Source: Minisyncoccota bacterium (GTDB taxonomy: Bacteria; Patescibacteriota; Minisyncoccia; Phycocordibacterales; UBA9973). Taken from it: a stretch of DNA of 64,000 bases. The DNA lies in contig JAGOQI010000001.1 in the NCBI GenBank assembly GCA_017991515.1, positions 41,641 through 105,640 on the forward strand. Direction: 5' to 3'. Of this stretch, positions 2,798-36,766 are shown piece after piece. The notes beneath the pieces were generated by a model that worked only from the letters and a program-made list of their open reading frames with translations, searched no databases and was not told the DNA's origin. Within the stretch, counting starts at the first letter, position 1; every line of letters begins with the position of its first letter. A program made the position numbers and the translations under genes.

Positions 2798-3139
2798 TTA
2801 ACATTCTTCATATGATACTTCTTTTCCAGTAATTAAACCCATTACACAAGCATCGTTGCCTCCTCCATAGTACAGATAAAGATTGTTTCCTGCCCATTTA
2901 TAATCTTGAATAGTTTCGCCAGGCATTTTGAAATTTTCTCCTGTATAAAATGGTCCATATAAAATTTCTTTACTGTTGTCCCACACTAAGACATTCTTCC
3001 AATTACGGTTTTCATCGAATGTTTTTATTAAGTAAAGGTTTTCAGTAAGTGGTTCATTTACCATGTTAAATAAGTAGTAAACTATTTTTTTCTGAAGTTC
3101 TGTAAGTTTAAGATATAAACTTCTGTCTTTGATTTGCAT
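2798..3139 (-). CDS. Hypothetical protein (113 aa, Tyr/Gly-rich C-terminal half), first gene of divergent pair B
   Basis: Intact ORF; start beside conserved promoter block copy B; SD-like AGGTGAGGG. Confidence 0.5.
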   Translation of the reverse strand: MQIKDRSLYLKLTELQKKIVYYLFNMVNEPLTENLYLIKTFDENRNWKNVLVWDNSKEILYGPFYTGENFKMPGETIQDYKWAGNNLYLYYGGGNDACVMGLITGKEVSYEEC

Positions 3140-3155
3140 AATTTTAAAGTTTCCC

Positions 3156-3604: not shown

Positions 3605-4141
3605 ATGTACAACTTAGATTTGTTTAAAAAAGAGGCGAGTGGAACGCAAGAATGGCTTTCCAAAGAATATAGCCAAATACACACAGGACGAGCAAATCCT
3701 GCACTTTTGGATGGTGTTCATGTAGAGAGTTATGGCGCTACACAGCCACTTAAAAATACTGCTTCTATATCTATTGAAGACCCTAAAACTTTGAGAGTTA
3801 TTCCTTGGGATAAAGGCTTGAATAAAGACATTGAAAGAGCTCTTCACGAAGCAAATCTTGGTTTTTCTATAGCACTGGACGATGCAGGGGTAAGAGTTAT
3901 TATCCCGGCTCTTACTACAGAGACTCGTACCAGACTTGTAAAAATAGCAAAAGAGCGAATGGAAGACGCGCGTATCGCTATTCGTAAAGCTCGCGAGAGT
4001 ATGCTTTCTGATTTGAAAGAACAGTCACTACCCGAAGATACTTTTATAAGAGCAAAAGAAGAAGTTCAAAAGTTGGTTGATAATGCTAATGCAAACCTCG
4101 AAGCTTTATTTGAAAAGAAGGAAGCTGAGATCTTAAACTAA
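3605..4141 (+). CDS. frr: Ribosome recycling factor
   Basis: 178 aa; RRF-like throughout (…RANPALLDGVHVESYGATQPLKNTASISIEDPKTL…RTRLVKIAKERMEDARIAIRKAR…). Confidence 0.85.
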   Translation: MYNLDLFKKEASGTQEWLSKEYSQIHTGRANPALLDGVHVESYGATQPLKNTASISIEDPKTLRVIPWDKGLNKDIERALHEANLGFSIALDDAGVRVIIPALTTETRTRLVKIAKERMEDARIAIRKARESMLSDLKEQSLPEDTFIRAKEEVQKLVDNANANLEALFEKKEAEILN

Positions 4142-21417: not shown

Positions 21418-23037
21418 ATGACAACACAACTACAACAAAGAACTGTCAAGGAAGTTGTACAACAGTATTCTAGTCTATATGGACTACAAGAGTCGAAAGC
21501 TTTTTTATTTTTAGTTATTGAAAAGTATTTTTCAGATAATGATTTAAATAGTATAGATATTGAAGAGGCAATTGTTGATGGTAGTGATGATTGTGGTATT
21601 GATGCAATTGTTATTGATGATTATGGAGACCAACGACCTAATGTATACTTTTTTCAATCTAAATTTTATCAATCCGAAGATGCTTTTGAAAAAAATTTTG
21701 AAGGAGAAGCATTAGACAAAATAAAAAGCTCTATAAACGATTTTGTTTTACAAGGAAAGATAAACAAAAAATATCAAAATACTAGGTTAGTAGACAAACT
21801 TCAATCAGTTAAAAACTTAGGATCTAGAAATCCTCTATACACAATTGTGCTTTGTTCTAATTCAAAAGAACCAACAGATATTGCAAAATCAAGACTTGAA
21901 GAATTTATTACCGAAACAAACAACAGTGCAGCCGGTGAGTATATTTCTATTGAATATCTTCACCTAGACCGAATAACTAAAGAGTTAATCGCACCTCAAC
22001 AACAAAGATTGATTGATATAAACCTACAAACTTCTGGAAAGTTCCTAACTGAAGATACTGGAAATGTTCGATTATTTGTTGGGGCTGTAGAAGCACAGAT
22101 TCTAGCAAGTCTTGTAGAGCAATATGGTAATGATTTGTTTGAGAAAAATGTTAGAGGATTTTTGGGGTCAAATAGTTTAAATAAAAATATTATTCGTACA
22201 GCAACAACAGAACAAAGCCCTTACTTTGTATACATGAATAATGGTATAACTTTAACATGTGAAAGATTTACACATTCTCCAACATCTAACTCTCCATTAC
22301 TAGAAATAAAAAACGCTCAAATTGTTAACGGTCAACAAACAGTTAGATCTTTACACCAAGCAAGTAAATCAGATGAATTAAAACCCGATGTGAAAGTTTT
22401 AATAAGAATAGTAGAGACTACCAACGCCGACTTGTTAAATCAGATAATTGAAGCAACAAATAGTCAAACAAAAGTTACTTCTAGAGATTTACATTCAAAC
22501 GATGAAGTACAAAGACTTATAGAGGAGCATCTAAAAACAAAAGGTTTTTTCTATGAGGCTAGGAAAAATAAATATAAAGGTAAGGATGTATCAAAAAGGG
22601 TTGATGCTGAGATCGCAGCACAGTCTTATTATTCAATTTTTTTTGAACAACCAGCTATAGCTAAGGATAAGAAAAAACTATTATTTGGTGATAAGTACGA
22701 TGAATTGTTTAATCAATACACAAAATCTGAAGATATACTTTACAGTTTTAAACTACTAAGAACTGTTCAAAAATTAAATAATCAAGATAAATATACTAAA
22801 TTTACATTTCTAAACGATGCGACTTTACATATTATTACTTTAATGCAAAAAATATCTGGCAAATTTGATTTTGATAATGACGAAGACATAACGACTAGTT
22901 ATGAAAGGGTCTTAAAAGCATTAAAAATAGTTGTTGATGAAAGAGCAAAAGAAGAGGGTGATAAGTACGAACATAGGAGAACATTTAAAGACCCAGAAAC
23001 ATACGGTAGGGTTGTAGAGGTTTTATTAAAAAAATAA
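21418..23037 (+). CDS. AIPR-family (abortive-infection phage-resistance) protein-like
   Basis: N-terminal region …EAIVDGSDDCGIDAIVIDD…VYFFQSKFY… matches, from memory, the AIPR pattern (D-G-x-D-D-x-G-I-D-A … Q-S-K-Y); 539 aa; inserted between grpE and dnaK. Confidence 0.5.
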   Translation: MTTQLQQRTVKEVVQQYSSLYGLQESKAFLFLVIEKYFSDNDLNSIDIEEAIVDGSDDCGIDAIVIDDYGDQRPNVYFFQSKFYQSEDAFEKNFEGEALDKIKSSINDFVLQGKINKKYQNTRLVDKLQSVKNLGSRNPLYTIVLCSNSKEPTDIAKSRLEEFITETNNSAAGEYISIEYLHLDRITKELIAPQQQRLIDINLQTSGKFLTEDTGNVRLFVGAVEAQILASLVEQYGNDLFEKNVRGFLGSNSLNKNIIRTATTEQSPYFVYMNNGITLTCERFTHSPTSNSPLLEIKNAQIVNGQQTVRSLHQASKSDELKPDVKVLIRIVETTNADLLNQIIEATNSQTKVTSRDLHSNDEVQRLIEEHLKTKGFFYEARKNKYKGKDVSKRVDAEIAAQSYYSIFFEQPAIAKDKKKLLFGDKYDELFNQYTKSEDILYSFKLLRTVQKLNNQDKYTKFTFLNDATLHIITLMQKISGKFDFDNDEDITTSYERVLKALKIVVDERAKEEGDKYEHRRTFKDPETYGRVVEVLLKK

Positions 23038-23047
23038 AATTAATAAA

Positions 23048-23066
23048 CTAGCAAGAACGGCCCTAG
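23048..23066. repeat. Copy 1 (degenerate) of palindromic element CTAGCAAGAACGG…CTAG
   Basis: CTAGCAAGAACGGCCCTAG; shares the 13-nt left arm with copies at 33869 and 34681; overlaps stop codon of 23063..23599. Confidence 0.45.
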
Positions 23067-23599
23067 TTAATCTTTGCTAAATGAAAAAATGCTTGTTCGG
23101 TTTCTTTGTCGAGGGTATTTGTTACAAAAACCATTATTTCGGTAGTGAGTCCGAAATCTTTTTTGATATTTGTGAAGAGATGTTCATAAGGGAAAGGGGA
23201 AACCCAGACACTATTTTTCAAACACATAAAACCAGCCTTCTTTAGAAGGTAACGAAGTGACTCTCTTTCATCTTTTCGAGTCTCTGGAAGATCAAGTATT
23301 ATGATGCGCCATTTACCATCCCATGATGGACTAACTAAGCCATTATCATTATCAAGTTTCAGACTATTTAGCTTCTTTTTACCTTCTTTTGTCAGTCTAG
23401 CGTATTCATTTTGTCCAGAAAAACTTTGTTCTACTAACCCAGTCTCTAGAAGCCCCTTTAAAGAGCGAGAAATGGCCATTTTAGAGCTTTTTTTGTCCTT
23501 TTGAGTACTTACTCGTTCCACTATCTCAGGCACTGAAATAGCCGGCTTTTCAGCTAATAGTTTCAATATTTTCTTCGAGAATGAAGGTTTTATTGACAT
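23063..23599 (-). CDS. PaaX-like winged-helix transcriptional regulator
   Basis: N-terminal wHTH-like (AISRSLKGLLETGLVEQ) and C-terminal WDGKWRIIILDLPETRKDERESLRYLLKKAGFMCLKNSVWVSP motif typical of the PaaX family; divergent from dnaK. Confidence 0.45.
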   Translation of the reverse strand: MSIKPSFSKKILKLLAEKPAISVPEIVERVSTQKDKKSSKMAISRSLKGLLETGLVEQSFSGQNEYARLTKEGKKKLNSLKLDNDNGLVSPSWDGKWRIIILDLPETRKDERESLRYLLKKAGFMCLKNSVWVSPFPYEHLFTNIKKDFGLTTEIMVFVTNTLDKETEQAFFHLAKIN

Positions 23600-23714
23600 A
23601 GTAATATCGTATCAGCTATACTCTTTATATACAAGTATTTCGCGACCGCAAAATTTATGTATTTCTGCACAAAATACTTGCGTTTTTATAAACTTTTAAT
23701 TTTAAAACAAAACT

Positions 23715-25598
23715 ATGGGAAAAATAATTGGAATTGACTTAGGAACTACAAACAGTGCTGTCTCTATCATCGAAGGAGGACAGCCAAAAATTATTGAAAA
23801 TATTGAAGGTTCACGAACTACTCCTTCTATTGTTGCTATTGGAAAAAATGGTGACAGACTTGTTGGCTTGCTTGCCAAAAGACAATCAGTAACAAATCCA
23901 CAAAATACTATCTACGGTATCAAGCGTTTTATGGGTCACAAATATGACGACCATGGTATGGAAAAAGTTATAAAGACTTCACCTTTTAAGGTTTCAAAAG
24001 ATGCCAACGGTGGCGCACTTATAAAACTTGCTGACAAAGACTATAGACCAGAAGAAATCTCTGCTATGATTTTGCAAAAGATCAAAGCAGATGTTGAAGC
24101 AAAGACAGGTGAGAAAATAACAGAAGCTATCATCACTGTTCCTGCATATTTCAACGATGCACAAAGAAAAGCTACGAAGGATGCTGGTGCTATTGCAGGT
24201 CTTGATGTGAAGCGCATCATCAATGAACCAACAGCAGCAGCACTTGCTTACGGATTTAACACTAAAAAAAATGAAAAAATAGTTGTTTATGACTTTGGAG
24301 GTGGAACATTTGATGTTTCAGTTCTTGAAGTAACAGAAGATGTTATTGAAGTTAAATCTACAGATGGAGACTCACTCATGGGTGGACGAGATATTGATTT
24401 GGATATTATCAACTGGATTGCTGAAGAATTTAAAAAGTCATCAGGTATTGATGTTTCCAAAGATCCTCTTGCTTTACAGAGACTAGATGAAGCAGCAGAG
24501 AAAGCCAAGATTGAGCTCTCTACAACTACAGAAACAGAAATAAATATTCCGTTTATTACTTCAACTGATGCTGGACCTCAACACTTACTGTTGAAAATGA
24601 CTCGTGCAAAGCTTGAAGAATTAGCTGATGAGTTTATTGCTCGTTCTATTGAGATAACAAAACGAGCTATGGATGCTTCTCCGTTTAAAGTAGGAGATAT
24701 TAATGAAATCATTATGGTTGGAGGTCAAACTCGAATGCCAAAGATTGTTGAAGAAGTTAAGAAGCTCTTTGGTAAAGAACCAAATCGTTCTATCAATCCA
24801 GATGAAGTTGTAGCTCTCGGTGCTGCAGTTCAAGGTGGAGTTCTTCAAGGAGATGTTCGTGATGTTTTACTTCTTGATGTTATCCCTCTATCTCTAGGTA
24901 TTGAAACTATGGGAGGCGTAGCAACAAAACTTGTTGAAAGAAATACGACTATTCCTTCATCAAAGTCTCAAGTCTTCTCAACTGCTGCTGACAATCAAAC
25001 TTCTGTAGAAATTCATATCGTTCAAGGTGAGCGACCAATGGCGGGAGATAATAAATCTATTGGGCGATTTGTCCTAGAAGGTATTGCTCCAGCACCAAGA
25101 GGTATTCCTCAAGTGGAAGTTTCTTTTGATGTGGATGCCAATGGTATTTTGGCTGTAAAGGCAAAAGATAAAGCAACCGGCAAAGAGCAGTCTATCCGCA
25201 TCGAAGCTTCTTCTGGGCTTTCTGCAGATGATATTGAAAAAATGAAAAAAGATGCAGAGCTTCATGCAGATGAAGATGCTAAGAAAAAAGAATTGGTAGA
25301 TACAAAAAATACTGCTGATCTAACTATCTTCACAGCAGAAAAAGCTCTTACAGAACACAAAGAGCACATAACAGAAGACATCAAAACTGCTGTAGAAGAT
25401 AAAATCAAAACACTTAAAACCACAAAAGAAGGTGATGACAAAAGTGCTATCGAAACTGCAATTCACGAACTCTCTACAGAAATGCAAAAGATAGGTGAAG
25501 CAGTTTCAAAGGCTAAACCAGAAGAAGGTACTGAACCAAAAGAAGGGGGAGTAAAAGACGCAGAAGCCGAAGAGACGTCTGAGGAAAAATCAGAATAA
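23715..25598 (+). CDS. dnaK: Chaperone DnaK (Hsp70)
   Basis: [18 protein letters not shown] and remaining Hsp70 signatures; 627 aa. Confidence 0.95.
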
Positions 25599-25666
25599 AC
25601 AATACTTGACAGTTTTCAAGTAACATGCTATCTTATATCTAGAATTTAATGGGTTAGTAAGTAAAA

Positions 25667-25695
25667 GGGGTTCCAGCCATGGAACCCTTTTTTTG
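25667..25695 (+). terminator. Rho-independent terminator after dnaK (GGGTTCC-agccat-GGAACCC + T8)
   Basis: 7-bp stem and T-run read directly. Confidence 0.65.
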
Positions 25696-25730
25696 TAGCT
25701 TATTTACAGCTTTGTGATACAATCTTGGGC

Positions 25731-25808
25731 ATGAATAAGAAGCGAAAAATTGCAGCAAAGAAAAAGCGAAAGGCTGATGGTAAAACAGTAAATCTAAGAC
25801 ATAGATAA
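25731..25808 (+). CDS. Possible 25-aa very basic peptide (MNKKRKIAAKKKRKADGKTVNLRHR)
   Basis: ATG..TAA in frame, preceded by extended -10-like TGATACAAT; 7 nt before the HAD gene; may be non-coding. Confidence 0.2.
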   Translation: MNKKRKIAAKKKRKADGKTVNLRHR

Positions 25809-25815
25809 TTTTTCT

Positions 25816-26586
25816 ATGACTATACTAAACTCCGAAAAGTATAGCGTTGTCTCATTTGATCTCGACGGTACTATAACTGAAAGTCGACAACCCATAGAGC
25901 CCTACATGGTAAATCTTTTAAATAAGCTCACTGAAAAAGTGTTGGTTGTTATTATATCTGGAAGTTCATTTAAAAATCTTTTAAACCAATTAGATCTATT
26001 TCTAAATCAAGAAAATAAAGAAATATTTAAAAACATACTTCTAATGCCAGCTAATGGTAGCGAGACTTATATCTATAAAACTACAAATTGGGAGATTTCT
26101 GATTCTGAAACTATGGGGAATGAAACTAAGAGTAAAATTATTGAAGTTTTAGAAAAATTAATAGATTCAAAAAATTTTAATATTCCAGAGATGGAAGTAG
26201 GCACTAAAATTGAAGATAGAGGAACTCAAATATCTTTTGCAGCACTTGGTATAGATGCTTCGATAGAAGAGAAAAAACTTTGGGACCACGATCAAGAGAA
26301 AAGAAAAAAGATAGTAAACTTTATAAAGCCACTACTTCCTGAAACTGACATTTTTATTGCTGGAACTACAACAATAGATATTTTACCGAAAGGAATAACA
26401 AAAGGAGTAATGTTAAGAAAAATGTTATCAAAAAGAACTCTCCTTGATACTGACTTACTATTTATTGGGGATGCACTATTTGAAGGAGGGAATGACTACG
26501 AAGTAAAAAAGGAGGGATTTAATACCATTTCAACAACAGGACCAAAAGAGACAGCAAAGATTATAGAAAGTATCTTAGAGAAGTAA
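25816..26586 (+). CDS. HAD-superfamily (IIB/Cof-like) sugar-phosphatase
   Basis: Motif I FDLDGTIT at N-terminus; motif IV-like FIGDALFEGGNDYEV near C-terminus. Confidence 0.55.
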   Translation: MTILNSEKYSVVSFDLDGTITESRQPIEPYMVNLLNKLTEKVLVVIISGSSFKNLLNQLDLFLNQENKEIFKNILLMPANGSETYIYKTTNWEISDSETMGNETKSKIIEVLEKLIDSKNFNIPEMEVGTKIEDRGTQISFAALGIDASIEEKKLWDHDQEKRKKIVNFIKPLLPETDIFIAGTTTIDILPKGITKGVMLRKMLSKRTLLDTDLLFIGDALFEGGNDYEVKKEGFNTISTTGPKETAKIIESILEK

Positions 26587-26588
26587 GA

Positions 26589-28262
26589 CTACTTATACTT
26601 GTGGTCGTGTTTATTATTTAATATTGGTATATAGCATTTATCTGTATATTCTTTCATAACCCTATTGGTTGAAAAATGTTCCTCTATAAGAGACCTAGAA
26701 TTTTTCATACGAGATAGCCATTTAGAATTACCTTGATCAAGAATATGACTATAATACATAGGCAAGATTTCTTCTTCAGTTATATCAAGCATTTTTTTAG
26801 ATAAATTTTCTGATTCATTTAAGACCCAGCCACAATCATTAACATCAACTTCAGCAATCCATCCATCTTTTGTAGAAAATGGAAGAACTCCATTTAATGC
26901 GGCCTTCATTCCGCTTGTACCACACGCCTCTCTACCTATCTCGGGAGTATTAAGCCATACATCACAACCAGCGACCATCAAAGTAGCTATATCGATATTA
27001 TAATGTGGCAAGAAAACAGCAACACCAGAAAGCTTTTCACTTATAATATTTTTGAGCTGTGCTAATAACTCATTATGGTGAACATTATTTGTTGGTCCTG
27101 AAAAAACAATTCTAAAAGGTTTATCACTATTTTGAGCTAATGCTACAAATCTTTCGACATCTTGAATAAAAGCAAGAGGTTGTTTGTATGGAACCATACG
27201 ACGCCCCCAACCAAAAAGTAATGTGTTTTCATCCCAAAGTTCTCCAGTTTCTTCTTTTATATATTGTAATAATTTCTTTTTATTTTCTTGGTGCAATCCC
27301 CATATATTTATACTGTCACTAATTTTGTCCCATCTAGGAATATAAATACCGTTAGTAATATTATCCATTTTATATTCAGGCCAAACATTTTGAGCTTCTT
27401 TGCCATGAAGAATACTGACAGAATTAGCTATAGAAGAAAATCTAAAAGAAAACATAGTCATTGAAAATAGTTTCGGATCATCTGTTATACCCATAGATAT
27501 AATCTCGTCAGTCGTAACACATATCTCTTTTGCATAACCATCTAATGCTTTAGCAATACTATCAACAGCAAAAATCTCTTGCCCAGCAGCAACCAATGTG
27601 TGATTGGTAAACAAAATATGTTTACTCGCATAACTACAAGCTGTACTAAAATCAACACGCTGATGTATCATTTCATGATTGACTAGTTCTAATGCCAAAA
27701 AAGCACTATGTCCTTCATTGAGGTGATAGACACTAGGATGTAACCCTAACAAATGCCTGAGAAATCGAAATCCTCCAATACCTAAAAGTATTTCTTGTTT
27801 CAAACGCAACTCTCTATCTTCTACATATAATTGCTCAGTAATAAGTCTGTCTTCAGCGGTATTTTGTTCAACATCAGTATCAAGCAAGTAAACATTAGCT
27901 CCATTTTCATTCCAGTGCCATATCTGAAAATATATTTGCCTACCACTAATAGGTATAGAGATTACAACAGGAGACTCCTTTACTGAAATAATTTTAATCT
28001 CTTTATTGCTTTCCGAATTATTGGTAATAATGTCGTTTTGTCCTTTTTTATACAAAAGACCAATAAAAACTATTGGTAGATCTTGCTCTGCAGACTCTTT
28101 CACAATATCTCCAGCTAGTATTCCTAAGCCCCCAGCATATATTGGTAGGGTAGGAGATAGTGCATATTCGGCTGAAAAATAAGCAACTGGATTTTCTTTT
28201 AGTGTTTTATAATCTTCTGTTTCTTTAAATTTTGAAGCCCATGTATCTTTGTTTGTTTGCAT
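26589..28262 (-). CDS. Alpha-glucan phosphorylase (GT35 family, short archaeal-like form)
   Basis: GGLGILAGD near N-terminus and the PLP-lysine region EACGTSGMKAALNG. Confidence 0.6.
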   Translation of the reverse strand: MQTNKDTWASKFKETEDYKTLKENPVAYFSAEYALSPTLPIYAGGLGILAGDIVKESAEQDLPIVFIGLLYKKGQNDIITNNSESNKEIKIISVKESPVVISIPISGRQIYFQIWHWNENGANVYLLDTDVEQNTAEDRLITEQLYVEDRELRLKQEILLGIGGFRFLRHLLGLHPSVYHLNEGHSAFLALELVNHEMIHQRVDFSTACSYASKHILFTNHTLVAAGQEIFAVDSIAKALDGYAKEICVTTDEIISMGITDDPKLFSMTMFSFRFSSIANSVSILHGKEAQNVWPEYKMDNITNGIYIPRWDKISDSINIWGLHQENKKKLLQYIKEETGELWDENTLLFGWGRRMVPYKQPLAFIQDVERFVALAQNSDKPFRIVFSGPTNNVHHNELLAQLKNIISEKLSGVAVFLPHYNIDIATLMVAGCDVWLNTPEIGREACGTSGMKAALNGVLPFSTKDGWIAEVDVNDCGWVLNESENLSKKMLDITEEEILPMYYSHILDQGNSKWLSRMKNSRSLIEEHFSTNRVMKEYTDKCYIPILNNKHDHKYK

Positions 28263-28269
28263 AATTAAT

Positions 28270-29760
28270 TTATCCTCGTTGTTCTGGCTGTCCGCCTCTT
28301 ATATGTTTATATTTTTCGGTGTAACGATCAAGTGTCTCTTCGACTTCAAAATTAGGAATCTCTAAACGCAATAACTCTATAGCATGTACTGCATCATAAA
28401 TATCATTTTTTGTTTCAATTTTGTAAATTGCATCACGCCACAAAATAGCTTTTTCATATTCACTGTTAGAAGAAGCTTTTTTCTCTAATGATTTTAACAT
28501 ATCCATAAATGCTTCATATATCCCTTGTTCAACACCACCTTTTTCAAATGTCCTTTCTTTGAAAGGTATTTTTACATTGTTTTGTTGCCCTGCCATCATT
28601 TTATAAATTTTGCCGCTTCTTTTCCATTGAAATGCTGTTGAGACAATTTTTTCATATAAATCCAAAGCTTTGTTTTTATCTTCTTGGCTAACCTTAACAA
28701 TAGACCTAACTATTGATAAATTAGCAAAAGCTCCTTGTTCTATTTCTTCTAAACTCCACCATGGTTTTGCAGATGCCCACCAAAAGTGATCTGACGCTAA
28801 AGCTTGGTCTAGCATACTTCTTATTTTTTTATATTCAGGATCTGCTTCAGACATTAGTTTTACAGATTCTTGCGCCAAATTAACCAAAGACCATTGCCAA
28901 GTGTGTATTTGATTTTCTGGATCAGACCATGATAAAAACTGAATGCCATTTTCAATATCAGACTGACTAGAAGCCCAGGTTGAAGCAATAGGGACAACCT
29001 CATCTGAAACAGGGAAGCTTTCTACTAATTCTGAAATCTTAACTAATTCAAAATCAGGGGAATCAAAAATTTCAAAAAGTAATTTTTCAAGACCTGGACG
29101 ATGGTGACCAAAAGTTTCTCCATCCATAGCTGTTAACAAATATGATTTATTATCCAACTCTTCTCCAAGTGCACTAACTAAAGATTGAGCCGAACGAACC
29201 ATAGAACTCATTATAAGATTACTCGGCCTTCTTTCTCTAAAGAAAACCTTAAGATCTGTACCTTTTAATCTATGGATACCCTCATATGAAAGTTGTTCAG
29301 TCTTACCATTAAAACTAATCTCATCTAATATTATCCATTCAAATCCTAGCTCAGCTATTATTTTCCCAACCTCTTCATCATAGGCCATCTCTGGTGGGAA
29401 AAAACCTTTAGGTTGGAAATCATTTCCTAAATATTTTTGAAGAGTTAGGGTATTAATTTTTATCTGACGGATAACTTCTTCTTTAGTTAAAAATGGTAAG
29501 AGTGCATGGTACTTTGCAGTTCCAGTAATCTCTAGTCTTCCTTCGTCAACTAATTTTTTAATAATATCAATAACATCTGAGTATCCATTTTCATCTAATA
29601 ACTCAAAAAGAGCACCAGTGATATTGATAGTCATCTTAACTTTTGGATTGTTAAGCATTTCGGAGAATATTGGTCTATAACTTTGGTGTACTACCGCTTC
29701 CAAAATATCAGGCTGTTGATTTGCAGGTTGATATATATGTAAAAAGTTGGCCCATTTCAT
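28270..29760 (-). CDS. Glycoside hydrolase family 57 alpha-glucan-active enzyme (branching enzyme or amylase-like)
   Basis: N-terminal …FLHIYQP… and overall GH57-like layout; sits between glgA and the phosphorylase. Confidence 0.5.
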   Translation of the reverse strand: MKWANFLHIYQPANQQPDILEAVVHQSYRPIFSEMLNNPKVKMTINITGALFELLDENGYSDVIDIIKKLVDEGRLEITGTAKYHALLPFLTKEEVIRQIKINTLTLQKYLGNDFQPKGFFPPEMAYDEEVGKIIAELGFEWIILDEISFNGKTEQLSYEGIHRLKGTDLKVFFRERRPSNLIMSSMVRSAQSLVSALGEELDNKSYLLTAMDGETFGHHRPGLEKLLFEIFDSPDFELVKISELVESFPVSDEVVPIASTWASSQSDIENGIQFLSWSDPENQIHTWQWSLVNLAQESVKLMSEADPEYKKIRSMLDQALASDHFWWASAKPWWSLEEIEQGAFANLSIVRSIVKVSQEDKNKALDLYEKIVSTAFQWKRSGKIYKMMAGQQNNVKIPFKERTFEKGGVEQGIYEAFMDMLKSLEKKASSNSEYEKAILWRDAIYKIETKNDIYDAVHAIELLRLEIPNFEVEETLDRYTEKYKHIRGGQPEQRG

Positions 29761-29766
29761 AATGTA

Positions 29767-31224
29767 CTATTTATTAAATTGATTAAGAGCCCTTTCAAAA
29801 AGTTTTATGTATTCTTTTGCTGACTTTTCCCAAGAAAAATTTGTTCCCATAGCTCTCTTTTGTATTTCTCTCCAAACTTTTGGATACCTATATGTCTCAT
29901 AAGCCCTAACAAAAGCCCCAAACAATGCATAGTGATCATAAGCTTCAAAAACAAAACCTGTTCCAAGATTATTTTTTAAGTCGACATCTTCAACGCTATC
30001 TACTAGTCCTCCAACATGACGAACAATAGGAACAACACCGTAACGCATTGCTTCCATTTGAGTAAGACCAGATGGTTCAAACCTAGATGGTATTAATATA
30101 GCATCAGCTCCCGAGTATATAACATGGGGAAGTATGTCGTCATAAGAGAGGTGAGTAGCAACATTTTTGTATTTTTTATCCAGTTCTTCAAAGAAGGATA
30201 AGTACTTAGAATCTCCAGAACCTAAAATAACAAATTGAAAATCAAAGTTATTCAAAAGTGGTTCTACTACCTCCATAACCAAATCAAAACCTTTCTGTTC
30301 CGCCAAGCGCCCTACCATAGCAACAACAAAAGTTTCTTTGTTCTCTGGTAAGTTAAATTTTTGTTGTAAGATTTTTTTATTTTTAAGTCTTTCGTTTAAA
30401 TCTTTAGAGTCGTATTTATATTCAACATAAGGATTAGTCTCTGGATTGTAAGCATCATAATTAATACCATTTAAGATACCAAAGAGTCTGGAGCGTCTCT
30501 CTTGCAACAAAGTATCCAAGGTCTCTCCGTATTCTGGACTAGTTATTTCTCGAGCATAGTTAGGGGAGACAGTATTGATAACATCAGCATAGCGAATACC
30601 TCGACGCATAAAATTTAATTTCAAGAGCCTGGGGTCTGAAATAGATGGGATTTCTGATTGACCATCATCATAATCAAGTTCGCTAATATGGTGATAGTCG
30701 TATGTTCCTTGAAAATGAATATTGTGAATTATAAAAATACTCGCAATAGTAGAGACAATAGGGTCGTCTTTATAATTACACTTCATATAGTTGGCGATTA
30801 ATCCTCCTTGCCAATCATTTCCGATGATAATATCAGGTTTCCATCCATCTTTACTTTTTGCAAATTCAATAGCTCCACGAGCAAGCAACGCCCACCGAGA
30901 CGCGTCATCATCATAACCATAAACACTACCTCTTTTTTCATAATACTCTTCGTTCTCAAGAAAATAAGTAATTAAACCTTCTGAAGACGAATACTCTTTA
31001 ACATTACAAATAATATCTTCGTGTTCTAAATCTGGAACATGCATTTGGTTGACCTTTGTTTTAAATTCAAATTTTTCCTGATCGATAATGCCGTATTTAG
31101 GAATAAGTGTTCGAGCATCATGACCTATTTCATTTAAGGCTTTTGGTAGGGCGTATAAAACTTCTCCTAAACCACCAACCTTAACAAAAGGAGCACATTC
31201 TGATCCCACAAAAAGTATTTTCAT
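29767..31224 (-). CDS. glgA: Glycogen/starch synthase (GT5)
   Basis: MKILFVGSECAPFVKVGGLGEV… ; ORF-track N-terminal extension to 31323 overlaps the upstream cupin gene, so the internal ATG at 31224 is used. Confidence 0.75.
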   Translation of the reverse strand: MKILFVGSECAPFVKVGGLGEVLYALPKALNEIGHDARTLIPKYGIIDQEKFEFKTKVNQMHVPDLEHEDIICNVKEYSSSEGLITYFLENEEYYEKRGSVYGYDDDASRWALLARGAIEFAKSKDGWKPDIIIGNDWQGGLIANYMKCNYKDDPIVSTIASIFIIHNIHFQGTYDYHHISELDYDDGQSEIPSISDPRLLKLNFMRRGIRYADVINTVSPNYAREITSPEYGETLDTLLQERRSRLFGILNGINYDAYNPETNPYVEYKYDSKDLNERLKNKKILQQKFNLPENKETFVVAMVGRLAEQKGFDLVMEVVEPLLNNFDFQFVILGSGDSKYLSFFEELDKKYKNVATHLSYDDILPHVIYSGADAILIPSRFEPSGLTQMEAMRYGVVPIVRHVGGLVDSVEDVDLKNNLGTGFVFEAYDHYALFGAFVRAYETYRYPKVWREIQKRAMGTNFSWEKSAKEYIKLFERALNQFNK

Positions 31225-31252
31225 TTTTTTGCCTTGCTTCATAAAATTCATA

Positions 31253-31843
31253 CTAATTTTTCTCAATAATAATGTTTGGTACATTTTTATAATTAGGATT
31301 TTTAATAAAATCAGGATTACCATCTTTACTTACTACATAATAAGCAAAACCTCTATTGTCTTTAACTGGCTTATAGTCAGCATGTATTGGCCACGAAGCT
31401 TTTTCGTTTTTAGACATTGCCACAGGGCTATCATCAGATGTTACTAACCAAGACTCTCCTATATTAATAATAAGATGTCCTGATTTTGGTGGAACAGTAA
31501 TAACACTTCCTGCGCTAAAATAAATAGCTTTTATACTCTCTACTTCGTTATCGATCAGTTCTCCACTTGAAAGCTTTTTTCTTTCTTGTAAAAGCATTAT
31601 TCCTTCACCGGACAAAACTGTATAAATTTCTGGCAATTCATCTACATGATAGTGACCATAAGCCTTTATATACTCACCACCAACATTTCCACTTTCCAGT
31701 ACTGTGATATTTTTTTTCTGACTTCCACCTCGAATCATATAATAGTGAACATTTGGTCCTGAGCTTTCAGGAGACATCAAAACATCTTTCATCTCTTCAT
31801 GAGTGCGTACAGCCATGATGTCTGTCTTATGCAAAGTATCCAT
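31253..31843 (-). CDS. Cupin-type glucose-6-phosphate isomerase (archaeal cPGI-like)
   Basis: Core GEYIKAYGHYHVDELPEIYTVLSGEG plus later PPKSGHLIIN matches the metal-binding cupin PGI signature (T-x-G-H-x-H … E-x-Y … H) as recalled from Pyrococcus/Thermococcus PGI. Confidence 0.5.
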   Translation of the reverse strand: MDTLHKTDIMAVRTHEEMKDVLMSPESSGPNVHYYMIRGGSQKKNITVLESGNVGGEYIKAYGHYHVDELPEIYTVLSGEGIMLLQERKKLSSGELIDNEVESIKAIYFSAGSVITVPPKSGHLIINIGESWLVTSDDSPVAMSKNEKASWPIHADYKPVKDNRGFAYYVVSKDGNPDFIKNPNYKNVPNIIIEKN

Positions 31844-31965
31844 AGTGAATAAATTGTAACACGGGAAGCCTATATAAATTATTTATTTGAGCGATACAAA
31901 ATAGAAAAAATGTGTTATAATATGCAAATAATAAAGGTTTTTGTAACAAATATACTTATCAAAAT

Positions 31966-33048
31966 ATGTCAAAAGATTATTACAATATATTAGGAGTCGA
32001 TAAGTCAGCTTCAAAAGATGAAATAAAAAAAGCTTTTCATAAAATGGCTCATAAATATCATCCTGATAAATCTGGTGGGGATGAAGCTAAATTTAAAGAA
32101 GTAAATGAAGCTTATCAAACTCTTCATGATGATCAGAAGCGTGCTGGCTATGATCAGTTCGGTAGCGATGGACCACAAATGGGTGGCTTCGGTGGACAAT
32201 CAAGCGGCTTTGGTGGCTTTGACTTTTCTGGATTTAATCAAAGTGGTGGTTCCGGTGAAGCTTTCGAATTCGACCTAGGAGATATGTTTGGAGGGATGTT
32301 CGGTGGCGGACGACAAGCGCGCAAACCTCGAGGAAACGACTTACAAACATCTATGACTATTGATTTCAAGGATTCTATTTTTGGAATTGAAAAAGAACTC
32401 AAAGTTACCAAGCCTTCTGTTTGTAATACATGTAAGGGAGACGGTGCAACGCCTGGAACAAAGCTTGAAACTTGTAGTACTTGTAATGGTAACGGAGTAG
32501 TTCGAAATATCCAACGAACAATCCTTGGTTCTATCGCTACAAATCAAACTTGTACCAAATGTGCCGGCTCAGGAAAAATACCAAAAGACCCATGTAAAAC
32601 TTGTCGTGGAACAGGAGTCGTAAACGACACTCGCACTATCAAACTCTCTGTTCCTGCAGGTATCCAAAATGGCGAGACGCTAAGACTCTCAAGTATGGGT
32701 GAAGCTGTCCAAGGCGGACCTTCTGGAGACTTATATGTACACATCACAGTCACGCCTCACAAAACTATTGCTCGAAAAGGTGCTGACCTCTATACAAACC
32801 TAGACATCAAACTCACTGATGCATTACTTGGCGCACAATACGCCGTTGAAACTCTTGATGGTTCTATGCCTATAGCTATACCTTCTGGAACAAAAATAGG
32901 AAGCACTGTTGTACTCAAAGACAAAGGTGTACCGATAAATAAAAACAAAAGAGGGAGTTTCGTAGTAAATCTAAATATCAAACTCCCAGAAAAACTTTCA
33001 AAAGAAGCTAAAGCTATTATTGAACAGTTGAAAAACGAAGGAATATAA
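31966..33048 (+). CDS. dnaJ: Chaperone DnaJ
   Basis: J-domain HPD motif (KYHPDK), G/F-rich linker, four CxxCxGxG zinc-finger repeats. Confidence 0.9.
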   Translation: MSKDYYNILGVDKSASKDEIKKAFHKMAHKYHPDKSGGDEAKFKEVNEAYQTLHDDQKRAGYDQFGSDGPQMGGFGGQSSGFGGFDFSGFNQSGGSGEAFEFDLGDMFGGMFGGGRQARKPRGNDLQTSMTIDFKDSIFGIEKELKVTKPSVCNTCKGDGATPGTKLETCSTCNGNGVVRNIQRTILGSIATNQTCTKCAGSGKIPKDPCKTCRGTGVVNDTRTIKLSVPAGIQNGETLRLSSMGEAVQGGPSGDLYVHITVTPHKTIARKGADLYTNLDIKLTDALLGAQYAVETLDGSMPIAIPSGTKIGSTVVLKDKGVPINKNKRGSFVVNLNIKLPEKLSKEAKAIIEQLKNEGI

Positions 33049-33051
33049 AAA

Positions 33052-33543
33052 TTAATGCTCGTGCTTATGAGTATGAGGAAGTAGGTGAGAGAGCACACAG
33101 CCCATAACTCCACCAAGGACTATGAACTCAAGTATTGAGGAATGACTCTCTGTTATCGCACTTGCGACTCTAGGAACAAAGAAGTAAATACATATCACGC
33201 CAAGTGTAATACTAGAATACATTTGGTAGCGAACATTATAAAAATGCTTTTTAACTTCTCCCCATAGAAATACATAGTCCATGGCAACATGAACAAGTAT
33301 CCAAAATAGTACAACTGAGGTGAAAGAAAATCCAAGCGAAGCATATTCAATAGCTTCTATGGTCATGTGAGCTACAAGAAAAAGCAAGCTTATGACATGG
33401 CTAGTACGGTGGGAGACCAAAGCTACAACAAATCCTAGTGCTAGAAAAGGCGCAAGGCTCCAAGAAATACCTGTTTCAAAAACATGTACTAATAAAACAC
33501 CTAGATATAAAGCCAAAAAAATTTTCCAAATATATTTCTTCAT
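33052..33543 (-). CDS. Hypothetical polytopic membrane protein with His-rich ends
   Basis: Four or five predicted TM helices; convergent with dnaJ. Confidence 0.4.
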   Translation of the reverse strand: MKKYIWKIFLALYLGVLLVHVFETGISWSLAPFLALGFVVALVSHRTSHVISLLFLVAHMTIEAIEYASLGFSFTSVVLFWILVHVAMDYVFLWGEVKKHFYNVRYQMYSSITLGVICIYFFVPRVASAITESHSSILEFIVLGGVMGCVLSHLLPHTHKHEH

Positions 33544-33570
33544 AGTTATACACCATCATAACATTGACCG

Positions 33571-33600
33571 ACATACTTTAAAATAGTTATAATATTAAGC
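33571..33600 (+). promoter_or_regulatory. Sigma-70-like promoter TTGACC-N17-TTATAAT
   Basis: Read directly; about 40 nt upstream of small ORF 33642. Confidence 0.4.
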
Positions 33601-33641
33601 GAATTAAGTCCAATTCTAAACTCTTTTTAAAAATAGCAAGT

Positions 33642-33818
33642 ATGATAATAAAAAATATTTTTATTGCTTTTGTTGCGGGTATTATTATAGGGTTAATACT
33701 AGGAGTAGTATTTAAAGTACATGGTTGGTGGTGGATGACACTACTATCTTTTTACACAGTATTAATAATAGCTGGATATAAAAGAAATGAAAGAATAGAA
33801 AAAATACAAAACAATTGA
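33642..33818 (+). CDS. Small membrane protein (58 aa, two hydrophobic helices, WWW motif)
   Basis: ATG 33642..TGA 33818; strong promoter upstream and terminator immediately downstream. Confidence 0.3.
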   Translation: MIIKNIFIAFVAGIIIGLILGVVFKVHGWWWMTLLSFYTVLIIAGYKRNERIEKIQNN

Positions 33819-33857
33819 CATCCAGTTTTAATTTATAACTGGATGTTTTTATTTTTT
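33819..33857 (+). terminator. Rho-independent terminator (CATCCAGTT…AACTGGATG + T-run)
   Basis: 9-bp perfect stem and T-run. Confidence 0.6.
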
Positions 33858-33868
33858 AAAACAAAAAA

Positions 33869-33891
33869 CTAGCAAGAACGGTTCTTGCTAG
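33869..33891. repeat. Copy 2 of palindromic element: perfect 23-bp palindrome CTAGCAAGAACGGTTCTTGCTAG
   Basis: Perfect inverted repeat around a central G; flanked by A-run and T-run, so can act as bidirectional terminator for GNAT gene (minus) and small ORF (plus). Confidence 0.55.
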
Positions 33892-33899
33892 TTTTGATT

Positions 33900-34460
33900 T
33901 CATTTTCTTAACTTTAACCAATCTCTTTTGAAAACTGAAAGTAGTACTTGATCATGGTATTTTCCATCACGATAATGATGTCTTTTTAAAACACCTTCTA
34001 CTTTGTAACCACAATTTTGATTATGCTTGATACTTCCTTTGTTTTTTGCAAAAGCATCACTACATATCTTACGGAGATTAAGAGTCATGAAAGCATACTC
34101 CAACAAAAGCATTTTTGCTTCTCTGGCATACCCTTTGTTCCACTCTTCTTTTGCGCCAAGCATAGAACCTGTACAAGCTATACCGCTTACATAATCAATA
34201 CGATGTAGCCCCATAGTACCAAGGAATTTATTGTCTTTTTTCAAAACAACAGCTAAGACAATGTTGTTAGGGTTTCTCGAAGAAACTCTTTTTATCCATT
34301 CTTCTTCGTCTCCTTTAGATAAAGGGTAAGTACTTGATAGATATTTCCTAACATCAGGGTCATTAACAAACCTTTGAACTAAACTCAAATCACTAAGATC
34401 AAGTGGTCTTAAGTAGAGTCTTTTGCCTTGCAAGAAAATTACCGGGGTTTTCTTTTTCAT
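33900..34460 (-). CDS. GNAT N-acetyltransferase (RimJ/RimL-like)
   Basis: …LYLRPLDLSDLSLVQRFVNDPDVRKYL… and GNAT motif A region; internal ATG at 34460 preferred because a hairpin lies inside the ORF-track extension 34461..34526. Confidence 0.6.
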   Translation of the reverse strand: MKKKTPVIFLQGKRLYLRPLDLSDLSLVQRFVNDPDVRKYLSSTYPLSKGDEEEWIKRVSSRNPNNIVLAVVLKKDNKFLGTMGLHRIDYVSGIACTGSMLGAKEEWNKGYAREAKMLLLEYAFMTLNLRKICSDAFAKNKGSIKHNQNCGYKVEGVLKRHHYRDGKYHDQVLLSVFKRDWLKLRK

Positions 34461-34680
34461 AATTTTAATTTTTAAAGTTAAATAATAAAAGAACAACCGA
34501 CTCATCATGAGCCGGTTGTTATACAAGATTGAGAAATAATTACTTATTTATACAAATACCGGACCACGAGAAAAAGCGACAGGGAAGTGAGCTCCTGACC
34601 AAACTTGTTTCATATTAGTTTGTATACATAAATAATGCATAAGCCATATAATACTATATTTTTTGTTTTTGTAAAGTTTA

Positions 34681-34703
34681 CTAGCAAGAACGGTTCTAGC
34701 TAG
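34681..34703. repeat. Copy 3 of palindromic element CTAGCAAGAACGGTTCTAGCTAG
   Basis: Differs from copy 2 by two substitutions in the right arm; about 15 nt upstream of the promoter for 34822. Confidence 0.5.
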
Positions 34704-34719
34704 TTTGAGACTATAAAGA

Positions 34720-34748
34720 TTGACAAAAGGGTATAAATATGCTATTAT
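34720..34748 (+). promoter_or_regulatory. Near-consensus sigma-70 promoter TTGACA-N17-TATTAT
   Basis: Read directly; gives a roughly 65-nt leader before ATG 34822. Confidence 0.5.
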
Positions 34749-34821
34749 ATGGATATAGTTCTTTGAATGTTTTAGTTGGTTTTCCAGAGTTTCTGAAGGG
34801 GGTTTTGGTAAATCAACTAAA

Positions 34822-35275: not shown

Positions 35276-35305
35276 TCGTAAATTCTTGCTAGAATATAGC
35301 TATAT

Positions 35306-36766
35306 ATGGCATCGCTTGAAGAGCTTCGAGAGGAGCGACTTAAAAAGAGACAAATTCTCGAAGAGAAGGGTTTTGATACCTATCCTGCCAAAAGCACTCG
35401 AACACACACTATTTTTGATTTCAACATAGCTTTTGATACTTTGGCGGAGTCTAAGGAGGTAGTTACTATTGCAGGTAGAGTAATGAGTCAAAGAGGTCAG
35501 GGAGCGCTCGCTTTTGCTGACATGTTCGATGGAACGGGAAAAACTCAATTATTCCTGAAGTCAGATGAAATGGATTCTGATATTTATACTCTTTGGAATG
35601 ACACTACAGATGTGGGTGACTTCGTTGAAGCGACCGGTATTGCTTACCTTACAAAGCGTGGAGAGAAAGCACTCTTTGTAAGTGATTGGAAGATGCTAAC
35701 CAAAAGTTTACTTCCGCTTCCTGAAAAGTGGCACGGCATCACAGATCCTGACGAAAGATATCGTAAGAGATATTTGGATATCCTTACTGATCCAGAACTT
35801 CAAGACCTCTTTTATAAGAAATCACAATTTTGGGAAGTCACTAGAAACTTTATGAAAGAAGCAGGTTTTCTAGAAGTAGAAACTCCGACTATCGAAGTCA
35901 CTACTGGTGGAGCCGAGGCCAATCCTTTCAAAACTCGACACAATGACTTTGATATTGATGTCTTTATGCGTATCTCGGTGGGGGAGCTTTGGCAAAAGCG
36001 TTTGATGGCGGCAGGTTTTGCCAAGACTTTTGAAATAGGAAGAGTATATAGAAATGAAGGCTCTAGTCCTGACCACTTACAAGAATTCACAAATATGGAA
36101 TTCTATTGGGCATACGCTGACTATGAAATGGGAATGGATATAGTTGAAAGACTTTATAAGAAGATAGCAGTGGATGTATTTGGAAAAACAGAGTTCACAA
36201 CCCGTGGACATACTTTTGATCTCAACGATACTTGGAAAAAGATTGATTATGTAGAAGAAATAGAAAAACAAACTGGTATCAATGTACTAGATGCAAGTGA
36301 TGCCGATATGAAAGCCAAACTTGATGAACTCGGCGTGAAGTACACAGGAGAGAACAGAGAGAGACTGACAGACACACTTTGGAAGTATTGTCGTAAATCT
36401 ATCTCTGGTCCTGCATTTCTCGTGCGAGTACCGAAACTTGTTTCGCCACTGGCAAAAGCTTGTACTGATGACCCAAGAGTGACTGAGCGTTTCCAAGTAC
36501 TTCTTGCAGGGAGCGAGGTAGGAAACGGTTTTTCTGAACTAAATGATCCTATAGACCAAAGAGCTCGTTTTGAACTCCAACAATCCTTAATAGAAGCAGG
36601 GGATGAAGAAGCTATGATGCCTGAATGGGAATTCGTAGAGATGCTAGAGCACGGCATGCCACCGACCTGTGGCTTCGGCTTCGGCGAAAGACTCTTTGCT
36701 TTCCTTGTCGACAAACCCCTCCGCGAAACACAACTCTTTCCACTACTAAAACCTAAAAATGAGTAG
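35306..36766 (+). CDS. lysS: Lysine--tRNA ligase (class II)
   Basis: Anticodon-binding OB fold then class II motifs (…RVYRNEGSSPDHLQEFTNMEFYWAY…GFGFGERL…). Confidence 0.9.
   Translation: MASLEELREERLKKRQILEEKGFDTYPAKSTRTHTIFDFNIAFDTLAESKEVVTIAGRVMSQRGQGALAFADMFDGTGKTQLFLKSDEMDSDIYTLWNDTTDVGDFVEATGIAYLTKRGEKALFVSDWKMLTKSLLPLPEKWHGITDPDERYRKRYLDILTDPELQDLFYKKSQFWEVTRNFMKEAGFLEVETPTIEVTTGGAEANPFKTRHNDFDIDVFMRISVGELWQKRLMAAGFAKTFEIGRVYRNEGSSPDHLQEFTNMEFYWAYADYEMGMDIVERLYKKIAVDVFGKTEFTTRGHTFDLNDTWKKIDYVEEIEKQTGINVLDASDADMKAKLDELGVKYTGENRERLTDTLWKYCRKSISGPAFLVRVPKLVSPLAKACTDDPRVTERFQVLLAGSEVGNGFSELNDPIDQRARFELQQSLIEAGDEEAMMPEWEFVEMLEHGMPPTCGFGFGERLFAFLVDKPLRETQLFPLLKPKNE

Follow-up and report, generated by a model that had tools for sequence, protein, structure and literature searches.

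A palindromic repeat linked to a Y1/HUH transposase family in Patescibacteria

Three copies of a palindrome between grpE and lysS

We analyzed a 64,000-nucleotide stretch of contig JAGOQI010000001.1 from a Minisyncoccota bacterium, a member of the Patescibacteria; we will call this whole stretch the window. Between grpE and lysS, it contains three copies of a 23-bp palindrome (Table 1), which we will argue belong to a family of repeats that is tied to a transposase. The window is about 34% GC, it matches the 66-kb metagenome contig JAHZTO010000593.1 and near-identical Logan contigs, and its DnaJ protein shares 84% identity with the one from a "Candidatus Nomurabacteria bacterium."

Table 1. 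Coordinates of the palindrome copies and of neighboring features in the window.
Feature	Position	Strand	Description
Palindrome copy 1	33869-33891	none	perfect 23-bp palindrome CTAGCAAGAACGGTTCTTGCTAG = CTAGCAAGAAC-G-GTTCTTGCTAG
Palindrome copy 2	34681-34703	none	variant CTAGCAAGAACGGTTCTAGCTAG, one base off copy 1 (T18A)
Palindrome copy 3	23048-23066	none	decayed, CTAGCAAGAACGGCCCTAG; left arm and terminal CTAG kept, inner right arm lost
Half-site before lysS	35283-35292	none	TTCTTGCTAG; overlaps the lysS -10 box TAGAAT (35290-35295); hairpin absent
GNAT (Acetyltransf_3) gene	33900-34526	-	Pfam 88.3 bits; bracketed by copies 1 and 2
AIPR gene	21418-23037	+	abortive infection
PaaX_M-like (Cas2-like) gene	23063-23599	-	178 aa; between grpE and dnaK, divergent from dnaK
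Glycogen-metabolism block	25816-31843		five genes between dnaK and dnaJ
Leader or small RNA before the GNAT gene	34470-34660	-	conserved non-coding leader or small RNA, about 170 nt
Promoter and transcript start	34720-34821	+	near-consensus TTGACA-17-TATTAT with TG
Stretch with the lysS -10 box	35290-35308		

The 13-mer CTAGCAAGAACGG has exact matches in the window only at the first base of each copy (23048, 33869, and 34681), which are the places where an earlier note on this DNA had reported a repeated palindrome. With up to two mismatches there are six matches, as compared to 0.97 expected, and none of 100 shuffled sequences reached six. A search for further copies found none in the rest of the window, nor in the 13.3 kb of this organism's DNA that adjoins it. 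No Rfam family matches any of the copies at the gathering threshold, and hits with E values up to 10 are noise only. As far as we know, the palindrome does not match the known operators CIRCE, the LexA (Cheo) box, or parS.

The three copies differ in their setting and in how well they fold. Copy 1 lies 9 nt past the stop codon of a GNAT acetyltransferase gene (whose start is at 34460 in public gene calls), with convergent genes on either side. Its hairpin is lengthened by A4/T4 pairs to 33865-33895. As RNA, it folds with -16.9 kcal/mol on the + strand (z = -6.1) and -16.4 kcal/mol on the - strand, for z scores of about -6 to -7, and a terminator is called on both strands. Because this stable fold is combined with U-runs on both strands, copy 1 probably terminates transcription of the GNAT gene. 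Copy 2 forms a weaker hairpin (-11.2 kcal/mol) and has no T-run; it is flanked by divergent promoter-like sites, at 34675..34648 on the - strand and at 34720..34748 on the + strand. Copy 3, which lies between the stop codon of the AIPR gene (23037) and that of the PaaX_M-like gene (23063-23065), folds no better than shuffled sequences (z = -0.9 and +0.1) and is a decayed REP (repetitive extragenic palindromic) element. We also considered a palindrome arm as a promoter element in the window and rejected this, as the spacing to any -10 box is unsuitable (judged by eye).

A half-site just before lysS had been proposed as well, at 35284-35293. The sequence is present, one base away from there, but it is probably part of the lysS promoter instead of a copy. 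We compared it to four related genomes (L140-L143), whose DnaJ proteins are 83-86% identical to the window's. All four conserve the -10 box (TAGAAT or TAAAAT) and not the TTCTTGC part, in place of which they have TTTCAGG, TTTTAAGG, or similar. Because of this difference, the kinship of the half-site to the palindrome is doubtful. On the same comparison we rejected it as a REP remnant, and we did not count it as a copy.

The palindrome recurs in diverse Patescibacteria

We scanned one genome per species, from 185,579 species (596 Gb), for the pattern CTAGCAAGAACGG-N2-6-CTAG, and we found 53 stretches. The palindromic 23-mer was found only in metagenome-assembled genomes of Patescibacteria, at 27 loci in 20 genomes, which are labeled Paceibacterota, Nomurabacteria, Zambryskibacteria, Saccharibacteria, and similar. 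These 27 loci have unrelated flanks, and their GC content ranges from 31 to 45%. The matches outside of the candidate phyla radiation (CPR) were all non-palindromic and due to chance. Viral contigs were rejected as carriers, since both of their matches were chance matches of this kind.

The stem is frequently extended by AC..GT or CA..TG, and the flank shows only an M/K preference that lengthens the stem. Most of the copies in other genomes are at the 3' ends of unrelated genes, and some are inside genes. A T-run is found on either side in 11 of 40 copies from other genomes.

These data bear on the explanation that the palindromes are mere intrinsic (bidirectional) terminators, which might resemble each other by local duplication or by convergence. 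Copy 1 has a strong hairpin, A and T runs, and the position of a terminator, and a terminator hairpin is found at its site in the relatives. The view of the palindrome as a bidirectional terminator, which the earlier note had raised, fits copy 1; it does not fit copy 2, which lies between divergent promoters, or copy 3, which is unfolded. Because the T-run is present in only 11 of 40 copies elsewhere, the family is not simply a set of terminators. Also, the 23-mer is found unchanged in 20 genomes that span different classes, and its flanks there are unrelated. Finally, the palindrome is tied to a transposase gene (see below). We consider the terminator explanation to be very improbable.

The palindrome brackets a Y1/HUH transposase gene

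At 7 of the 27 loci, which are from GTDB genomes, the palindrome lies 27-32 nt upstream of the ATG of a gene that encodes a protein of 222-230 aa. At all seven of these, a second palindrome is found at the stop codon or within about 50 nt past it. The gene is absent from the other 20 loci. Across loci, it is the sole recurrent neighbor of the palindrome. The two intact sequences from the window are among those associated with the gene: copy 1 is identical to the palindrome that flanks it in L053, L027, and L059, and the exact variant of copy 2 flanks it in L013 (with 4 copies) and is also present in L026 and L039.

The bracketed gene is a Y1/HUH transposase. The protein matches Pfam's Y1_Tnp (34.8 bits; the cutoff is 23), and in 80 diverse homologs, H85 and H87 (the HxH motif) and Y146 are at least 90% conserved. 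We built an AlphaFold2 model (AF2) from these 80 sequences, with a pLDDT of 94.4. Its best match in the PDB, according to Foldseek, is 4ER8, which is TnpA-REP from E. coli with a bound REP hairpin (E = 9.5e-5), followed by IS608 TnpA and ISDra2 TnpA. Searching the PDB by sequence gave no match from an alignment of close homologs and marginal ones from the diverse alignment. The family is large, with at least 2,893 clusters at 90% identity (E up to 1e-10) and 13,164 representatives at E up to 1e-3. The sources label its members only as "transposase," such as "transposase IS200-like."

The earlier note had proposed a dispersed element that is recognized by a protein, similar to a REP or to a miniature inverted-repeat transposable element (MITE), and not just a conserved structure. 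Three findings support this: the 23-mer is dispersed across 20 genomes of Patescibacteria, where its flanks are unrelated; it stands on both sides of a Y1/HUH transposase gene; and the enzyme's best structural match is a REP-associated transposase.

Among the REP-bearing loci from GTDB, which we examined as 8-kb pieces, there was never more than one transposase locus per genome, and the genomes with a single transposase locus had solo palindromes at 2-4 loci. Copies that are more than 300 nt from a transposase gene number 13 in 287 kb, or about 0.45 per 10 kb, and the density in the window (3 copies in 64 kb) agrees with this. Extrapolated to a genome of about 1 Mb, this density would amount to tens of copies. 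In two Saccharibacteria genomes, the transposase gene adjoins a gene for a 770-aa TPR protein; this common gene neighborhood suggests that the transposase was inherited vertically in these two genomes.

Given the link to a transposase, we can also weigh the explanation that a transcription factor, such as the PaaX_M-like neighbor, uses the palindrome as its operator, or that the palindrome is an integron-like site for cassette recombination. In favor of this are the perfect dyad symmetry, the position of copy 2 between divergent promoters, the single gene enclosed by copies 1 and 2, and the adjacency of copy 3 to the PaaX-like gene. However, the usual location elsewhere is the 3' end of an unrelated gene or, at times, the inside of a gene, and the only recurrent neighbor is the transposase. 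Three of the relatives (L141-L143) keep the PaaX-like gene and have no palindrome nearby, and there is no integrase or other recombinase among the neighboring genes. As for attC sites of integrons, they are imperfect, 57-141 bp long, and carry R/L boxes, while this element is a perfect dyad of 23 bp. An operator or a cassette site therefore seems barely credible.

Palindrome and transposase vary together

As an independent test, we picked 80 metagenome loci by similarity of the transposase protein alone (41-74% identity), of which 72 included both flanks. The 100 nt upstream and the 160 nt downstream of the gene share an 11-mer or longer in 69 of the 72 loci, as compared to 5 of 154 displaced controls.

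At these loci, the sequence of the palindrome varies with the clade of the transposase. Close relatives have the classes CTAGCAAGAAC, TAAGCAAGGAC, CAGCAAGGAC, TGCGCAAGAAC, CTAGCTAGGAC, and CTCGCAAGGAC, and distant clades have palindromes of the form xCAAGG-loop-CCTTGx. The inner stem CAAG(G/A)AC is conserved, and the outer 4 nt depend on the class (CTAG, TAAG, CAG, TGCG, CTCG, or ACGG). Inverted doublets that resemble REPINs are present in L064, L086, L101, L117, L120, L130, and L134. The orientation of the two flanking copies can be read by the central base alone; by this measure most pairs are direct, with C in both copies on the coding strand, and the few others are mixed.

We examined the anatomy of the unit at 52 loci with an upstream palindrome. 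A -10 box that matches TATAAT at 5 or 6 of 6 positions is present at 44 of them. At 32 of these 44 loci, exactly 6 nt separate the end of the box from the ATG, a distance that implies a leaderless transposase mRNA. The hexamer 17 nt upstream of the -10 box is TTGCTA, TTGCGA, TTGACA, or similar, and it lies within the right arm of the palindrome. Given this spacing, the right arm would occupy the expected place of the -35 box of the transposase promoter. At the other end of the unit, the stop codon is frequently inside the downstream copy.

Two further observations concern these units. First, -10 boxes sit 6-10 nt before the ATG not only of most of the transposase genes (L053-L139) but also of lysS in the window. 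This placement suggests that mRNAs with no leader, or with almost none, are widespread in these genomes. Second, partial tandem copies of a single arm (for example, CCTAGCAAGAA-CCTAGCAAGAAC-full REP) stand beside full copies in L053 (at 3090-3140 and 3860-3920), and partial arm copies are also found near the transposase gene in L059, L013, L054, L074, and L078. Such arms may have been left behind by repeated rounds of cleavage and joining.

Probable solo REP elements of a RAYT-like family

We think it very likely that the three palindromes in the window are solo REP elements, and that they belong to a family that is recognized, and presumably spread, by a transposase similar to the REP-associated tyrosine transposases (RAYTs). 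This Y1/HUH transposase is widespread in Patescibacteria.

By analogy to TnpA-REP from E. coli and to TnpA from IS608, the 23-mer would, when single-stranded, fold into a hairpin of 9-11 bp. The transposase would bind this hairpin, nick the DNA beside it via a covalent 5'-phosphotyrosine link, and move or copy the element. The copies in the window would be passengers, with the transposase gene not within about 77 kb. Copy 1 may have been co-opted as the intrinsic terminator of the GNAT gene, or may have substituted for it; copy 2 would be harmless between its two divergent promoters; and copy 3 would be decaying.

The REP/RAYT systems of Gammaproteobacteria likewise have short palindromes that are scattered across the genome, mostly between genes (Nunvar 2010, PMC2817692; Bertels & Rainey 2011, PMC3116915; structure 4ER8). 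The likeness is in both the layout and the enzyme (see also Bertels 2017, PMC5581495): a Y1/HUH gene lies between two copies, the second of which is found at the stop codon or shortly past it; palindrome and transposase co-vary; some relatives have REPIN-like inverted doublets; and the best structural match is 4ER8.

Several observations weigh against placing the Patescibacteria elements in this group. We did not find the GT(A/G)G head (GTAG or GTGG) on the 5' side of the hairpin, and instead the outer 4 nt differ by class. Unlike a canonical REP, the palindrome is a nearly perfect dyad around one central base. In canonical systems the two flanking REPs are inverted (Nunvar 2010, PMC2817692), but here, as judged from the central base, they mostly appear to have the same orientation. 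We estimate tens of copies per genome, not hundreds. The protein is longer, at about 225 aa, with a C-terminal extension of roughly 75 aa, and it scores 24.9 bits against NCBIfam's RAYT model (NF047646), which is below the cutoff of 80. Also, tblastn finds no homolog of the transposase in the window or in its 13.3 kb of extensions (L144 and L147), so for the window's genome, the link to the transposase rests on sequence identity with other genomes. Two more differences from known REP/RAYT systems are the placement of the right arm at the expected -35 position of a presumably leaderless mRNA and the presence of some copies in frame inside genes.

Another explanation is that the transposase and its two palindromes form an ordinary autonomous insertion sequence (IS) of the IS200/IS605 type, and that the copies in the window are solo ends or MITE-like derivatives. 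Elements such as IS608 and ISDra2 share the Y1/HUH fold and the recognition of hairpins, and the unit of roughly 0.7 kb has hairpins at both ends and a promoter in its left end, as in IS200 and IS608. Furthermore, the protein matches Y1_Tnp, its PDB profile match to ISDra2 TnpA equals that to TnpA-REP, the family is annotated as "transposase IS200-like" in the sources, and copy numbers are low. On the other hand, both ends carry the same palindrome instead of distinct left and right ends, there is no tnpB, and the best structural match is a REP-associated enzyme. Solo hairpins outnumber the transposase gene, which appears to be single-copy: at the REP-bearing loci there is at most one transposase locus per genome, versus solo palindromes at 2-4 loci. 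Because of the identical ends, the single gene copy, and the common neighborhood in two Saccharibacteria genomes, which suggests vertical descent, we consider a plain IS200-type element to be unlikely, and we prefer the interpretation as a RAYT-like system.

Our literature search found no paper that links REP, RAYT, or REPIN to Patescibacteria, and none that contains the sequence of the palindrome. To our knowledge, nearly all work on REP/RAYT systems has been done in Proteobacteria. It seems that this is a REP-type element of an ordinary kind, in a group where it is apparently undescribed. A large family with easily-recognized cognate palindromes could serve as a marker in CPR genomes, to follow the turnover of intergenic regions, to type strains, and to spot assembly breaks, and it offers a compact system for studying the co-evolution of HUH transposases and hairpins in very small genomes. 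For the annotation of the window, it explains three odd palindromes and cautions against reading them as operators or as cassette boundaries.

The same sites in four relatives

The presence or absence of a REP differs at the same sites among sister genomes. Where the window has copy 3, L140 carries a perfect REP that belongs to another class (TAAGCAAGGACCGTCCTTGCTTA), and L141-L143 carry no REP. In place of copy 1, the relatives have a short terminator hairpin, AAAACTAGCATTTCTGCTAGTTTT in L140 and L141 and AAAACCAGCATTTCTGCTGGTTTT in L143, whose outer stem CTAGCA/TGCTAG is common with the REP. The position of copy 2 is unoccupied in L141, and in L140 it holds that genome's own class of REP, 13 nt upstream of the same TTGACA-17-TATTAT promoter. 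So at two of the same sites, the window and L140 have different REP classes.

None of the four relatives has the AIPR gene, which is therefore an insertion; it lies between grpE and the PaaX_M-like gene that all of them conserve. This relates to the idea, from the earlier note, that the palindrome marks insertion junctions. In favor of this idea, the AIPR gene is an accessory insertion and the interval from dnaJ to lysS varies. Against it, the PaaX-like gene belongs to the core, and L140 carries a REP at the site of copy 3 without the AIPR gene, so the idea holds only in part.

The block of genes for glycogen metabolism was found only in the window and in L140. Considering the boundaries of this block and of the AIPR insertion, a REP is present only at the 3' end of the AIPR gene.

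Copies within genes and possible replacement in place

Exact or near-exact REP 23-mers are found in frame within protein-coding genes in L052 (5877-5899), L017 (3102-3124), L034 (987-1009 and 1608-1630), and L042. The hosts that are supported by Pfam are a MYG1 exonuclease, the linker of an AddA-like helicase-nuclease, and a Peptidase_S74 protein. The in-frame 23-mers always encode LARTVLA. In the MYG1 of L052, the REP gives LARTVLAR where the ortholog has WAKDIILR, so eight codons are replaced. The length of the protein is the same as that of the ortholog from the window's organism and that of human MYG1, and for this reason we rejected a simple insertion at this site.

Copy 1 of the window resembles the relatives' terminator with its loop replaced. 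Together, the length-neutral REP in MYG1, the swapped loop of the terminator, and the different REP classes at the same sites hint that REPs may replace existing sequence in place rather than simply insert. The "orthoswitch" of Nunvar 2013 (PMC3686654) offers a comparison. Combining these threads, Patescibacteria might have a phylum-wide and largely single-copy RAYT-like transposase whose REPs overwrite existing sequence in place, with the REP acting as a portable -35 or terminator module. This combined scenario is tentative, and we would not bet on it.

In-frame palindromes in a reduced genome are also a feature of Rickettsia. The Rickettsia palindromic elements that Ogata et al. reportedly described in 2000 are said to be 100-150 bp long, to add a peptide segment, and to have no known cognate transposase. 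The elements in Patescibacteria are similar in being palindromic repeats of a reduced genome that can sit in frame in protein-coding genes. They differ in being 23 bp long and in leaving the protein's length unchanged in the one case that we examined.

Other features near the palindromes

The PaaX_M-like gene is present in all four relatives as well as in the window. Its place between grpE and dnaK is that of hrcA in many bacteria. Because it occupies the place of hrcA, the PaaX_M-like protein is a candidate regulator of the heat-shock response.

Upstream of the GNAT gene, the conserved leader or small RNA lies between the promoter-like site at 34675..34648 and the start of the gene. It has a long closing stem and a conserved core (GGTCAGGAGC...CTCGTGGTCCGG), followed by a strong terminator hairpin (34520..34492) with a U-run. 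The leader is conserved in L140 and L141, and it did not match any Rfam family. It could be an attenuator or a riboswitch-like element.

On the other side of copy 2, the near-consensus promoter is followed by about 70 nt of the start of a transcript. This transcript start is conserved in L140 and L141, with differing small open reading frames downstream.

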